Positions 41,378 to 63,664 of a stretch of DNA of 64,000 nt are shown in pieces (within the stretch, counting starts at the first letter, position 1; every line of letters starts with the position of its first letter). This stretch comes from Vescimonas coprocola (GTDB lineage: Bacteria > Bacillota_I > Bacilli_A > RF39 > UBA660), in contig CAVKYE010000001.1 in the NCBI GenBank assembly GCA_963660615.1, positions 69,954 to 133,953 of the forward strand, written 5' to 3'. Position numbers and translations under genes: made by a program. Under the pieces are notes generated by a model. The model worked only from the letters and a program-made list of their open reading frames with translations, was not told the origin of the DNA and made no database searches.

Positions 41378-41911
41378 TTAAATGGTAATAGCCCCTGTAA
41401 ATATTTCTTTAAGATATCTTATATATAACTGAAATATATTTGCTTTTTGAATATTTTTACTGGTAGTTAGGTTTATTGTTCTAATTGTTTTTCCGTTTTC
41501 TTTAATGTTTAGTTTTCCTATATTATCACCTTTTTTTATTGGAGCTTTTAGTTCATTTAGTTTTACTTCGTATACAGCATTACCGCTTTTTTCGCTTTTT
41601 TTCCTTAATATTGTGACATCTTCTTTAGGAACTACTTTTATGTATTTTTCTTTGGATTTTGTAACTTCGTATTTTCCTAAAGATGAATTCTCATTTAGTA
41701 GATTATCTATTTTGTACTGGGCAAAGGCATAATCTAACATTTCGCTTACTTCTTTGTTTCTTGTTTTGCTGTCGGGTTCTCCCATTACTACGGCAATTAT
41801 TCTCATGTTTTCCTTTTTAGCAGTGGCGGTTAGGCAATATCCTGCTTCTTTGGTGTATCCTGTTTTAAGCCCATCTACTCCGTCGTAAAATCTTACTAGT
41901 TTATTTGTATG
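41378..41911 (-). CDS. dacB: D-alanyl-D-alanine carboxypeptidase (DacB/DacF-like) 3' segment: KTG motif region plus C-terminal beta-sandwich domain
   Basis: Extending the ORF upstream of its internal Met gives ...HTNKLVRFYDGVDGLKTGYTKEAGYCLTATAKKENMRIIAVVMGEPDSKTRNKEVSEMLDYAFAQY..., with a stop 4 codons further upstream and no start. Joins in frame with the 5' segment at 63020..63664 (...LVNTNK). Confidence 0.8.
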   Translation of the reverse strand, partial: HTNKLVRFYDGVDGLKTGYTKEAGYCLTATAKKENMRIIAVVMGEPDSKTRNKEVSEMLDYAFAQYKIDNLLNENSSLGKYEVTKSKEKYIKVVPKEDVTILRKKSEKSGNAVYEVKLNELKAPIKKGDNIGKLNIKENGKTIRTINLTTSKNIQKANIFQLYIRYLKEIFTGAITI

Positions 41912-42078
41912 TGAATAATACTATAGTAAAAAGATATCACTTCTTGATGAAATGATACCATGAAATTATATAATTAACAATAGTTATAACTTTTTTTGAT
42001 TTTACTTTTAAATAAAGCTATAAAATTATTTGATTTTGGAGCGTAATTGTTTTATAATAATTAACCAAAGGTGAGAAA

Positions 42079-43044
42079 ATGTATAAATTATATGTTGGAA
42101 ATTTTAGTTCAAATAGTGGGTTTCACATTATTACATTAAACAATAATTTTGGTATAATTAATGATAAAAGCAATATTGCATCAAATTACAACTCATATTT
42201 GTATTGTGATAGCAATAATTTAGTTTTATCAACAGTAGAAACAAAAGGAACAAAAAACAATCCTAATGGAAAGATTGTTGTTTTTAGATTAGATAACAAA
42301 GATAATCCAAACATCATTACTAGTTTTAATTCATTTGGATTAAATCCTTGCCACATTACTTATAATGAGAAAAAAAGAATAGTTTCAGCAAGTAATTATG
42401 ATTCTGGAAACTTATCACTGTTTTCTTTGGATAAAACAGATAATCTGTCCTTAAAGCAAGTCCTTACCTTCTATAGAAATTCTTTGATTCATTGTTCTTT
42501 GTTTAGCGAAGATAATCTTCATATTGTGGATAAGGGTGCTAGTAAAATTTACACATTAAATTTAGAAGAAAAAAAGAGATTAATCACTTCTATAGCTTTT
42601 AAAAATGACGTACAGCCAAGACACTTAATCAATCGGGATAATAAATATTTTTATCTAATAAGTGAATCTAAACCGCTAATTATAACATTGGAGTACAGTG
42701 ATAACTTGTTTAAAGTAATTGATGTACAAAGACTATCAAATAATGAATGTACTGGGTGTGCAATAAAATATGATAAATCTTCAGAAATGCTATATGCAAC
42801 AGTTAGAGGTTCAAATGAAATAAAAATATTTTCAACATCGCAAATCGTGCCTAAATTTATTCAAACAATTCCTTCATTTGGATTAAATCCCAGAGATATA
42901 GATATAAGTGAAGATTTAGCTGTTGTAACAAATCTTGAAAGTAATTGTTTAAGTTTATATAAAAAATATGCTGATGGAACGTTAGGGCATTTAAACAATT
43001 TATCAACAACATCTCCTGCTTTTGTCAAAATAAAAAAATGTTGA
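42079..43044 (+). CDS. 7-bladed beta-propeller lactonase family protein (6-phosphogluconolactonase-like)
   Basis: Repeated ...G.NP.HI... / SNYDSGNLSLFSL blade-like motifs. 321 aa. Only plus-strand gene in the cargo region. Confidence 0.5.
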   Translation: MYKLYVGNFSSNSGFHIITLNNNFGIINDKSNIASNYNSYLYCDSNNLVLSTVETKGTKNNPNGKIVVFRLDNKDNPNIITSFNSFGLNPCHITYNEKKRIVSASNYDSGNLSLFSLDKTDNLSLKQVLTFYRNSLIHCSLFSEDNLHIVDKGASKIYTLNLEEKKRLITSIAFKNDVQPRHLINRDNKYFYLISESKPLIITLEYSDNLFKVIDVQRLSNNECTGCAIKYDKSSEMLYATVRGSNEIKIFSTSQIVPKFIQTIPSFGLNPRDIDISEDLAVVTNLESNCLSLYKKYADGTLGHLNNLSTTSPAFVKIKKC

Positions 43045-43049
43045 ACATA

Positions 43050-43976
43050 TCATTTATTCAACATTTTTTTTAATGAAATCATTATTTCAATAACTATTTT
43101 TTTTAAATCATTATTTTCTGAAAATCTTGGTAACAATCTTAAATTTGCTTCTAAATTATAGATTTCATGTCTGATTTCAAAGTTATCAACATTATATATT
43201 TCAGGATAAAATTCTTTAAAGTATTTTTCTATATTTTGATAATCTTCTATTTTGACCAAATTCTCAGCTTCTTCACTAGCATACTTTAAAGGATTATTAC
43301 ACATTCTTAAAAATATATCTAATTCATAGTCAATTGGAGCATATAATGATGTTTCAAAATCAATTATTTTTATTTGACCATCGTTACAATAAATAATATT
43401 ATCAAAATGAATATCAGAATGAACTAATCTAAAATCACTACTCTTCAAATAATCACTTATATTTTTTAATATTTGTTCAGCCATATCTTTTTCAGTTTGC
43501 GAAAATAGATTAAGATCAAAACATTTATTGAAGTTTCGTTCTAATTTTTCTTTTATATACAATGCCCAATCATAAGATTCACCCTTTATAGAATGAAATG
43601 ATTTCATCATATTTACTATTTCTTTTACTATTTCTTTTCTTTTATCTTCATCAAGCTCATGCCAAACAAAATATAGTGATTTACCATTAATTTTTTCTAT
43701 TATCTCATAAGAAAAATCATCATTAGAAGTTGAAATATAAAACGAATACATTTTTGGAATATATTTATTACCAGCATTACTTTTATAAAACTCAATTTCG
43801 TTTTCAAAATTTGCTTCATTTTCTTTATTGTTACAGATCTTAATAATATATTTATCATCAGCAGAATATACAGAGTTTGTAAATCCAACGTTTATTTTAG
43901 ATATATTTTTAATATCATTGAAAATTTTATCATTATCATCTACTATTTTTTTTAAATATGTGTCCATAAGTGTCAC
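43050..43976 (-). CDS. APH/choline-kinase-family phosphotransferase
   Basis: Brenner motif HSDIHFDNII and IIDFE; 308 aa. Confidence 0.6.
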   Translation of the reverse strand: MTLMDTYLKKIVDDNDKIFNDIKNISKINVGFTNSVYSADDKYIIKICNNKENEANFENEIEFYKSNAGNKYIPKMYSFYISTSNDDFSYEIIEKINGKSLYFVWHELDEDKRKEIVKEIVNMMKSFHSIKGESYDWALYIKEKLERNFNKCFDLNLFSQTEKDMAEQILKNISDYLKSSDFRLVHSDIHFDNIIYCNDGQIKIIDFETSLYAPIDYELDIFLRMCNNPLKYASEEAENLVKIEDYQNIEKYFKEFYPEIYNVDNFEIRHEIYNLEANLRLLPRFSENNDLKKIVIEIMISLKKMLNK

Positions 43977-62717: not shown

Positions 62718-62736
62718 AAGTTAATATCACTCCTTT

Positions 62737-62841
62737 CTAATTAGAAGTAATACCTTTCCTTTCACTTAAAATTTTTGGAACACTAGTATTTAAGAAAAAC
62801 TTCATAATCTCTAAACTAATGTTTTTAGATAAACAAGTCAT
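62737..62841 (-). CDS. possible 34-aa ORF between recombinase 3 and the att junction (speculative RDF-like mini-gene)
   Basis: ATG at 62841 with AAGGAGG 7 nt upstream: MTCLSKNISLEIMKFFLNTSVPKILSERKGITSN*. No homology to the mini-ORFs of elements 1 and 2. Confidence 0.2.
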   Translation of the reverse strand: MTCLSKNISLEIMKFFLNTSVPKILSERKGITSN

Positions 62842-63016
62842 TATCGGACCTCCTTTTTTCTAACTCATTCATCTAATTATACGATTATGTTATTCAAATA
62901 TTCCAAAACACTATAGTAATATTCACTTACAAACAAATTTATTTTGTATGTTAGTTTTTGATAAAACCCTTATTTATAAATAAAAAATACTATAGTAATT
63001 TTTCACTATAGCAGTT

Positions 63017-63664
63017 TTAGTACACGACTTTATTTGTATTAACAAGCCAAAAAGGGTTTTTGGTATCTTTTCTTAAGTAATCTTCATATGTTGATGTGAA
63101 TTCTAGTATTTTATCATGCTTTACTAATTCTTTAGCAATAAGAGCCATATCATAAGCACTTGAATAGTGATTGTCTGTATCTAATCCTGTAGCATTTATA
63201 AAGTTAGTATTTTTAAGTCCTAGTTCTTTGGCTTTAGTATTCATTTGTTTTACAAATTCTTCTTCAGTCCCTGATATTCTTTCTGCCATAGCTACAGTAG
63301 CATCATTTCCTGAAGCGATTGATATTCCTTTTAGCATATCTGTTACACTCATTTCCTCGCCTGCTTTTAAGAATATTTGACTACCTCCCATACTTGCTGC
63401 TTTATCTGATGCTGTTATCATTTCATCCCATTTTAAATTACCTTTTTCAATCTCTTCCATTATTAGGAGTAAACTCATCATTTTTGTCATTGAAGCAGGT
63501 GGTAATTTTTCATAAGCATTTTTCTGAAATAATATTTCTCCAGTTGAGGCTTCAATTAGAATAGCGGACCCAGCACCTTCTGCTAGGTTTATTTCACCAT
63601 ATACTTTATTTATTGGTATTAAAAAAAGACAGAATAATATAAATATTAATGTTTTTTTCATCAT
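63017..63664 (-). CDS. dacB: D-alanyl-D-alanine carboxypeptidase (DacB/DacF-like) 5' segment: signal peptide plus SxxK/SGN part of the PBP5-type domain, stops right after ...FWLVNTNK
   Basis: Signal peptide MMKKTLIFILFCLFLIPINKVYG. Active-site SMTKMM (SxxK) and SGND (SxN). After NTNK the frame reads VVY* into element DNA, whereas the family continues L.R.Y.G.DG.KTG (found at 41378..41911). Confidence 0.8.
   Translation of the reverse strand: MMKKTLIFILFCLFLIPINKVYGEINLAEGAGSAILIEASTGEILFQKNAYEKLPPASMTKMMSLLLIMEEIEKGNLKWDEMITASDKAASMGGSQIFLKAGEEMSVTDMLKGISIASGNDATVAMAERISGTEEEFVKQMNTKAKELGLKNTNFINATGLDTDNHYSSAYDMALIAKELVKHDKILEFTSTYEDYLRKDTKNPFWLVNTNKVVY

Follow-up and report, generated by a model that had tools for sequence, protein, structure and literature searches.

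How does a carboxypeptidase gene of the sporulation type come to lie in two pieces, and could it be made whole again? The question was raised by a 64,000-nt stretch of contig CAVKYE010000001.1 from Vescimonas coprocola (hereafter the window; GC content 26%), whose host belongs to an uncultured, reduced-genome lineage of gut Bacilli ("Tenericutes") and is not a true Clostridium. In the window, a D-Ala-D-Ala carboxypeptidase (dac) gene is divided by a 21.1-kb genomic island that carries its own large serine recombinase (LSR). The structural part of this conclusion is secure: the island is driven by an LSR, hits one precise site, has moved horizontally and could, on paper, be removed exactly. It may be an element that leaves the gene when the cell sporulates. 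The divided gene and the island consist of the following parts.

63017..63664, minus strand: dac 5' segment, with a signal peptide and the SMTK(MM) and SGN(D) motifs; its open reading frame (ORF) ends ...WLVNTNK-VVY-stop.
41378..41910, minus strand: dac 3' segment, with the KTG motif and PBP5_C in its translation; its own start codon is absent.
41900..41910: left copy of the 11-bp repeat TTTATTTGTAT, with the predicted crossover TT at 41901-41902.
41911..63028: integrated element body, 21.1 kb, with a GC content of 24.1% against 30.5% in the flanking host DNA.

Three element-derived codons closed the 5' ORF after ...WLVNTNK, and exactly this 214-aa product is already on record. The translation of the 3' segment contained ...HTNKLVRFYDGVDGLKTG... 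and continued as ...(H)TNKLVRFYDGVDGLKTG..., and its 142-aa internal ORF has been called PBP5_C in seven other assemblies. The sign of the GC skew flipped at the left junction. An earlier note on this DNA had placed an 11-mer at both junctions, and TTTATTTGTAT was found at exactly 41900-41910 and 63029-63039 and nowhere else when both strands of the window were searched; the chance of its occurrence at one given position was estimated as ~6e-6 from the base composition of the window. The note had also held that deletion between the repeats would recreate a PBP5-type ORF. In-silico removal of 41911..63039 (21,129 bp) gave 1158 nt in frame, encoding a protein of 385 aa that matched Peptidase_S11 (E=1e-83) and PBP5_C (E=5e-15) in Pfam and contained complete SMTK, SGN and KTG motifs. 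Comparison with intact genes agreed with this reconstruction, as the rejoined junction, WLVNTNKLVRFY, was the same motif as in ~30 uninterrupted orthologues from reference genomes. Since the insertion falls between the SxN and KTG motifs, the predicted products of the split gene include no active carboxypeptidase, nor could they.

The two ends of the island were organized as hybrid attachment (att) sites.

41876..41928: hybrid att junction, element/dac 3', with a host half-site followed by an element half-site ending in the outer motif ACTATAG.
63004..63056: hybrid att junction, dac 5'/element, with ACTATAG at 63005-63011, the repeat at 63029-63039 and the predicted crossover TT at 63030-63031.

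The palindrome TACTATAGTA was present at 41919-41928 and 62988-62997, and more ACTATAG copies began at 63005 and 62910. The proposal of the earlier note that motifs of the ACTATAG type are att half-sites was borne out, and the symmetric attP layout recurred in L059, a related element with an LSR 84% identical to that of the window. The note's position for the left palindrome was right, while the right copy lay at 62988-62997 rather than at 62986, with a further ACTATAG starting at 63005. The implied pairing of the palindrome at 41919 with the one on the right did not hold: the outer att partner of 41920-41926 was the copy at 63005-63011, and those at 62989 and 62910 were additional. Joining of the element ends gave an inferred attP of the form ACTATAG-N18-AA-N18-CTATAGT in the window, with CCTTTTTGGCTTGTTAATACAAATAAACTAGTAAGATTTTACGACGG as the predicted attB sequence and ACTATAGTATTATTCACATACAAATAAAGTCGTGTACTAAAACTGCTATAGT as the predicted attP sequence. 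In L059, the attP layout was conserved around a different inner sequence, and the identity between host and element cores was reduced to AATAA only; the spacing of the right arm was kept in all eight attL junctions. Owing to the symmetry of the att architecture and the shrinkage of the shared core to AATAA in L059, the crossover is most likely the 2 bp with which the Lys codon opens, AA on the gene strand and TT on the plus strand (41901-41902 and 63030-63031). By the same comparison of sites, the 11-bp identity is host-dependent, and in this host it is partly a coincidental similarity of half-sites.

The enzyme that would act on these sites is encoded next to the dac 5' segment, within a compact unit.

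61287..62717, minus strand: LSR of 476 aa, in the same orientation as dac, with Resolvase, Recombinase and Zn_ribbon_recom domains.
62737..62841, minus strand: 34-aa ORF, 19 nt upstream of the LSR gene, MTCLSKNISLEIMKFFLNTSVPKILSERKGITSN; its ribosome-binding site is strong.
62876..62903, minus strand: promoter-like box GAATATT-N13-CGTATAAT, upstream of the mini-ORF/LSR operon.
61265..61284, minus strand: intrinsic-terminator-like hairpin, directly after the LSR gene.

An LSR at the edge of the element had been pointed out before. As in skin and yin, its gene directly follows the 5' fragment and shares its orientation. Its Pfam matches were PF00239 (5e-42), PF07508 (3e-21) and PF13408 (4e-9). 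The catalytic Ser motif YLRVSTEEQ aligned with that of TP901-1 integrase, so the recombinase, with its domains and catalytic motif apparently intact, was not obviously dead. The nearest phage integrases were 34-37% identical, and 1565 homologues were found among metagenomic proteins. A mini-ORF of 31-37 aa stood immediately upstream of the LSR gene in all 11 contexts examined, and in its core, IEIMKFFLNTSVPRILKER, 87 synonymous and 96 non-synonymous codon differences were counted pairwise, which indicated apparent purifying selection. The 34-aa ORF had no family match, and because the mini-ORF is the sole partner of the LSR in every element, it is a candidate directionality or accessory factor. 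The promoter-like box was conserved in six of seven distinct family sequences aligned by eye, with L065 keeping the -35 part without CGTATAAT; the pattern, which was defined after the data had been seen, occurred once in the window against ~0 expected. The box before the mini-ORF resembles the geometry of a sigma-E promoter only loosely. Between 60100 and 64000, the hairpin after the LSR gene was the sole terminator-like site, and no terminator was found in that scan between the dac 5' stop codon and the LSR.

Elements of this type were compared in 11 contexts (the window, L052, L053-58, L059, L060, L062, L063/64, L065/66, L077, L078 and L079-81), whose LSRs were 59-100% identical to that of the window and 473-481 aa long, with an attB/attP pair of ~52 bp. 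A truncated Peptidase_S11 5' fragment was present just before the mini-ORF in all of them except L077, the contig of which starts only 475 bp upstream of the LSR. The insertion codon was identical in the eight of eight contexts in which a junction could be read: TGG CTT GTx AAy ACn AAT AA/A (the slash marks the cut). When both ends were present, the elements measured 2.76, 3.3, ~3.5, 8.3, 10.9 and 21.1 kb, and joining the halves gave an intact Dac of 377-423 aa at five of five loci. In a search with the Dac 5' half of another host, 73 of the 120 best 90%-identity clusters ended just after WLVNTNK, with element-derived tails such as VVY-stop, VVYKNYYSE-stop and A-stop translated from the conserved element arm, and 72 of these 73 split clusters retained both SxxK and SxN, in a survey that is biased toward intact ORFs. 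Split dacF genes are thus common in gut metagenomes, and they may be annotated as short carboxypeptidases. Several of the clusters that ended after WLVNTNK were on contigs of 75-150 kb.

Judged by these shared junctions, the element is one member of a very widespread LSR family with a fixed dacF target, and not a one-off insertion. The family appears to be undescribed. Systems of this kind are known, but the target, the clade of hosts, the invariant mini-ORF and the size that this family reaches are apparently new. The statement in the earlier note that no such gene had been reported as a target stood: in full-text searches of the literature, none of dacF, dacB, spoVD and spoVE was found described as a gene that an intervening element targets. 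The cargos of the family included a Bro-N protein, a kinase, an SLFN/AlbA_2 ATPase, a sigma factor together with a reverse transcriptase of a diversity-generating retroelement (DGR) and bAvd, Fic, MazG and helicases, and a glycan/radical-SAM cluster. In L062 (13577-17919), the DGR, a reverse transcriptase with bAvd, adjoined a 669-aa N_methyl protein. Fic, MazG, an SLFN-type helicase and a DEAD helicase lay behind the shared recombination unit in L065 (11939-20533), an SLFN/AlbA_2 ATPase was the cargo of L079 (11596-13041), and a RelA/SpoT homologue was found with radical-SAM, Peptidase_S66 and GT28-like genes in L053 (13371-20533).

The island was also seen to have moved. L052 carries the same element (LSR 100%, helix-turn-helix (HTH) protein 100%, sigma factor 99% and next gene 99.7% identical) in a host whose Dac 5' half is only 68% identical, and the identities of LSR and host Dac were uncoupled across all pairs. 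It follows that the island moves between species, and co-divergence of LSR and host was rejected on the same grounds. Within the species of the window, for which assemblies were recognized by an identical neighboring HTH protein, the element/dac-3' junction was identical in seven of seven other assemblies, making eight of eight occupied with the window. An empty site for this species was not found among them, and the best full-length Dac was 82% identical. Cargo differed in two of the seven: L068 and L069 encode a 438-aa APH-family protein and no lactonase, against the 308-aa kinase and lactonase at 42079-43976 of the window. The junction being identical while the island end differs, the cargo is evidently being remodelled. 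Strains L074-76, of the species that hosts L053-58, had an empty WLVNTNK site; in them a different element with a 563-aa LSR cuts dac at SMTKIM/S (L074:6000-10966, L075:6117-10966).

The split gene was assigned to the dacF type by its homologues and their neighbors. The nearest cultured homologues (Bacillus, Pontibacillus, Halobacillus, Cohnella) were 48-55% identical, and all of them lie in dacF-spoIIAA-spoIIAB-sigF operons. In the relatives L003 and L005, dac was followed by a STAS gene and then by a sigF-like sigma gene, and in L065 a STAS gene lay directly after the dac 3' half. The operons of the Bacillaceae homologues and the STAS/sigF-like neighbors in relatives therefore identify the gene as dacF-type, and the earlier description of a PBP5-type sporulation carboxypeptidase was upheld with this refinement. 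The gene is probably sporulation-specific, and a matching role in this host is what we infer. In the closest relatives, an intact dac stood immediately before yqeG-yqeH, with the island genes absent nearby.

In addition to dac, two other genes of the window, in a dcw-like cluster, were found interrupted, at three places in all. A class B penicillin-binding protein (PBP) gene on the minus strand lay in three pieces (22971-23861, 19250-19417 and 14388-15245), separated by element A at ~19418-22970 (~3.55 kb; one ORF besides the 576-aa LSR and a Fic-like gene) and element B at ~15246-19249 (~4.0 kb; a 584-aa LSR reading across the junction and two ORFs without family matches). The first cut fell inside the SxxK motif (STF/K). 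The joined protein of 638 aa scored 741.7 bits against the NCBIfam SpoVD equivalog cut-off of 688. An FtsW/SpoVE-like gene at 12390-13451 (minus strand), which scored best with the SpoVE model, was truncated at ...GLIPVTGV/ILRGIL-stop, and the piece with PLPFISYGG, the expected C-terminal motif, was nowhere in the window. MraY, between spoVD and spoVE, was intact, and every fragment of the two interrupted genes was still an intact ORF piece. Positions 1-12389, which run off the window start, looked foreign by eye, with genes for a single-stranded DNA-binding protein, a sortase and a large surface protein and restriction-modification-like genes.

The two LSRs in spoVD were 41-44% identical to the L074 LSR that cuts dac at SxxK, which suggests, from sequence relationship, a second LSR clade specialized on the active-site regions of sporulation PBP genes. 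Sporulation PBP genes of this lineage are thus hot spots of insertion, with at least two LSR clades involved. SSPI, SpoVS, STAS and sigF-like genes were carried by relatives and by the host flanks of the family contexts. A genome survey found spoVD, spoIIAB and other genes reduced or absent in the order RF39 (PMC10868615). Upstream of dac and of spoVD, a scan of the window sequence gave nothing recognizable as a sporulation promoter, a strict sigma-E promoter match was absent from the window, and the generic promoter scan of the window was under-enriched. The host flank also carries a HerA-like ATPase of 590 aa (window 35422-37971), similar to anti-phage HerA models at scores below their cut-offs, and an adjoining divergent 254-aa kinase-like ORF; the pair was present in all assemblies of the species and could be a defence system.

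The remainder of the island was annotated as follows.

60665..61183, minus strand: HTH_36 protein (Pfam PF13730), with homologues in L052, L053 and L062.
59665..60195, minus strand: small sigma-70-family factor of 176 aa (Pfam Sigma70_r2).
59566..59644, minus strand: promoter-like TTGACT-17-TAGAAT with tandem 22-bp repeats, upstream of the cargo operon, as read from the sequence.
44006..59481, minus strand: cargo operon (Pfam and NCBIfam).
43050..43976, minus strand: kinase of the APH/choline-kinase fold (Pfam APH, E=1e-17), at the element end.
42079..43044, plus strand: lactonase-type 7-bladed beta-propeller gene (PF10282, E=6e-34).

The gene order of the element was 34-aa ORF, LSR and terminator, HTH_36, sigma factor, co-directional cargo operon and divergent lactonase, with recombinase-HTH-sigma as a conserved module. 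The sigma factor matched the NCBIfam sigma70-ECF model at 3e-18 and the SigK/SigE models at ~1e-16, far below their cut-offs, and had homologues in the elements of L052, L053, L062, L065 and L077/78. A non-coding gap of 470 bp (60196-60664) upstream of the sigma gene matched nothing in Rfam at gathering thresholds. The 22-bp unit ACAATACTATCAAAATTAAAGT (gene strand) is repeated exactly and in tandem (59601-59622 and 59623-59644) immediately upstream of the promoter-like site, and this unit could be a putative operator for the HTH protein or the sigma factor of the element. The cargo operon began with a ManA-like cupin, two family 1 glycosyltransferases (GT1), a polysaccharide deacetylase, a radical-SAM/SPASM protein, a GT2 and an Acetyltransf_6 protein. 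It continued with a second radical-SAM enzyme, a short-chain dehydrogenase/reductase, a radical-SAM/SPASM protein resembling maturases of ribosomally synthesized and post-translationally modified peptides, and a 428-aa protein without assigned function. It ended with an ABC-F ribosomal-protection-like ATPase, a HAD hydrolase (UMPH-1), an HddC-like sugar-1-phosphate nucleotidyltransferase and a priming glycosylphosphotransferase of the exopolysaccharide type, after which came the kinase. Of the three radical-SAM enzymes, two matched SPASM-type maturase models, and NCBIfam cut-offs were exceeded by TIGR03025 (300.7 against 295.55) and NF000355 (463.9 against 380). The kinase was 94% identical to that of the 3.3-kb L059 element, where Choline_kinase is also recorded.

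No virion, lysis, type IV secretion or relaxase gene was found among the ORFs of the element in Pfam and NCBIfam scans. A prophage or an integrative and conjugative element was accordingly rejected, the required phage and conjugation genes being absent, and so was an intein or intron, no such domain being found and the element ends being att sites. Rfam and tRNA scans showed no RNA element in or beside the island, and two tRNAs at 35.2 kb were unrelated to it. Judged from its gene content, the element is a non-phage, non-conjugative genomic island driven by an LSR.

The island was compared with known developmentally excised and site-specific elements. In the skin element (sigK, SpoIVCA; B. subtilis, C. 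difficile and others), an LSR element likewise splits a sporulation gene in frame, and the recombinase adjoins the 5' fragment in the same orientation, as it does here. Fifteen skin elements share the recombinase and little other gene content (10.1101/2022.02.25.481979), which is again the pattern seen here. The dac island differs from skin in its dacF-type target, its non-phage cargo and an LSR whose similarity to known recombinases is only generic, and it is known from sequence alone. The gin element (GirC/GirX), which interrupts gerE in Bacillus cereus ATCC 10987, is likewise not a prophage; it has serine recombinase(s) and an overlap sequence that is short, and it requires a small extra factor (PMC5595907). 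However, gin has three recombinases and occurs in few strains of the B. cereus group, whereas the dac island has one LSR with a 31-37-aa ORF and its family occurs in dozens of uncultured gut taxa. For SPbeta in spsM and phi3T in kamA (SprA/SprB), the LSR unit sets the target, the cargo is interchangeable, and small degenerate as well as large versions exist (PMC6957869), likewise as in the dac family. Those elements are prophages, active or defective, that sit in mother-cell genes and have a directionality factor under separate regulation, while phage genes and a recognized regulated factor are missing here. In yin (yabG, Clostridium botulinum), the recombinase is also downstream of the 5' fragment, other strains have a conserved attB, and integrated and excised forms coexist (PMC10747680); yin is a prophage of a single strain, in contrast to the non-phage and very widespread dac family.

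SCCmec, mobilized by the Ccr LSRs, is likewise a non-phage, non-conjugative cargo island with one conserved chromosomal site, and the best NCBIfam similarity of our LSR was to CcrB (E=4e-52, scoring far under the cut-off of that family). An SCC insertion falls at the 3' end of the target gene, which is not destroyed, whereas the dac element cuts in the middle of the coding sequence. The fdxN, nifD and hupL elements of heterocystous cyanobacteria (XisF and others) are also developmentally excised and interrupt genes of a terminally differentiated cell, but they belong to another phylum and another programme, with homology limited to the LSR family; the generic similarity of our LSR to XisF (E=2e-40) was below the cut-off.

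That the island is a sporulation-linked gene-intervening element of the skin, SPbeta and gin kind is, in our estimation, the likeliest reading, though at no better than even odds, and the timing, the compartment and the role of the 34-aa ORF are what we infer. Integration of attP into attB at the central AA would split dac at the Lys codon of W-L-V-N-T-N-K. The same LSR, acting on both hybrid junctions, would release a 21.1-kb circle and restore the 385-aa ORF base-perfectly, with the invariant LSR and 34-aa ORF forming the excision module. The island would ride in a gene needed only for spore formation and would excise in sporulating cells, whereupon the carboxypeptidase would be made. Characterized LSR elements that split sporulation genes in frame all excise at sporulation (PMC5595907, PMC6957869, PMC10747680). 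Sporulation-linked excision is favored because the gene fragments are intact, the island is fixed in the species and minimal members persist, and also because the LSR lies directly downstream of the 5' fragment without a terminator and sporulation genes occur in the window and in relatives.

Several observations weigh against it. The known targets sigK, spsM, spoVFB, spoVR, gerE and kamA are mother-cell genes, and this targeting lets the spore genome keep the element (PMC6957869); yabG, the target of yin, is SigK-regulated (PMC10747680). In B. subtilis, dacF is expressed under SigF/SigG within the forespore and not in the mother cell (10.1101/2022.02.25.481979), and a forespore-expressed target is at odds with the way in which skin and SPbeta are retained in the germ line. 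The dac gene of the window lacks spoIIAA/sigF neighbors; after it come genes for an HTH protein and a ttcA-like gene, then yqeG and yqeH. The mini-ORF is apparently co-transcribed with the LSR, unlike a tightly regulated directionality factor. The ability of the host to sporulate is inferred, and its relatives are a mix of sporulators and non-sporulators in which sporulation was repeatedly lost (PMC10868615). Given the recent horizontal transfer, the intact halves may simply reflect recent insertion. Neither the exact 32-mer nor the 52-nt degenerate pattern of the attP circle had a match in JGI metagenome contigs and IMG/VR, a weak negative in that the family lies mostly in ENA/Logan assemblies, which are not pattern-scannable, and the exact rejoined protein of the reconstituted dac allele of this strain was not on record.

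A serious rival explanation, somewhat less likely in our view, does without any developmental programme: the WLVNTNK target would be a safe harbor, hit only because its sequence is highly conserved and its gene is dispensable for growth, and dacF would be inactive while the island is resident. Any excision would then serve only horizontal transfer, and the insertion could belong to an ongoing erosion of sporulation genes. The movement of the element between species (LSR 100% against Dac 68%, with the two identities uncoupled) and the variable cargo typical of islands, with defence-type and DGR genes or a glycan/radical-SAM cluster, are what such an insertion would show, and dac is also cut at SxxK by an element of another LSR family, unrelated to this one. 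Three broken cortex genes in one window are also a signature of decay, and related orders lose sporulation repeatedly (PMC10868615). In C. difficile, the sporulation of a dacAC/ldt mutant was not rescued by deletion of dacF in one reported assay (PMC13344953), and products of attP or attB were not found in the searchable collections (JGI metagenome contigs, IMG/VR and recorded proteins). However, no decay was seen in any examined gene half, and the motifs were kept in 72 of 73 split clusters, with the above bias of the search toward intact ORFs. The rejoined spoVD was still above its equivalog cut-off, and occupancy was eight of eight in the species of the window. Moreover, minimal members of 2.8-3.5 kb with little beyond the recombination module persist, in the manner of domesticated intervening elements (PMC6957869).

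A reversible switch seems improbable. The island would leave dac as a circle, possibly in the forespore or in only part of the population, be maintained and later insert again, as in the 'active lysogeny' of the Listeria comK prophage. Such a switch would allow DacF to be made without the lineage losing the island, and so it would account for a forespore-type target that is nevertheless occupied in eight of eight assemblies. The conserved promoter-like box of the LSR and mini-ORF is compatible with a switch, as are the efficient integration by LSRs without accessory factors (PMC12286644) and the coexistence of integrated and excised yin in culture (PMC10747680). The element, though, has no clear replication function beyond the weak hint of HTH_36; the attP junction was also not seen in JGI metagenome contigs or IMG/VR. 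An assembly artefact, by which a chimeric contig would join unrelated DNA inside dac, was rejected as scarcely credible in spite of the origin of the window in a metagenome-derived assembly of an uncultured organism, because the junctions recur across independent assemblies: the same element/dac-3' junction in seven of them, the dac-5'/recombinase arrangement in many samples and species, and both dac halves in a conserved host neighborhood in which yqeG and yqeH follow dac in relatives.

Extended beyond dac, sporulation-linked excision would have spore-cortex synthesis gated by independent islands, at least four elements here (two in spoVD, one in spoVE and one in dacF), each with an LSR module that rebuilds its host gene at sporulation. 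We regard this wider proposal as rather unlikely. If excision at sporulation is true for dacF, the family would be the first intervening element in a forespore-type gene, and germ-line retention would need either a mother-cell rewiring of DacF or excision followed by re-integration.

Disruption of genes by LSR islands, if regulated or reversible, would extend to new targets (dacF, with spoVD and spoVE nearby) and to abundant uncultured bacteria of human and animal guts. Sporulation genes scored as 'missing' in these lineages may in fact be split, and the low spoVD in RF39 is a possible example, provided that the lineage falls within RF39 or an order next to it. The family also offers a compact recombination system, consisting of an LSR, a 31-37-aa ORF and a defined attB/attP pair of ~52 bp, and a natural experiment in which one recombination unit is combined with very different cargos (glycan/radical-SAM, ABC-F, DGR and defence-type). 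A forespore-type target would challenge the rule that intervening elements need mother-cell genes.

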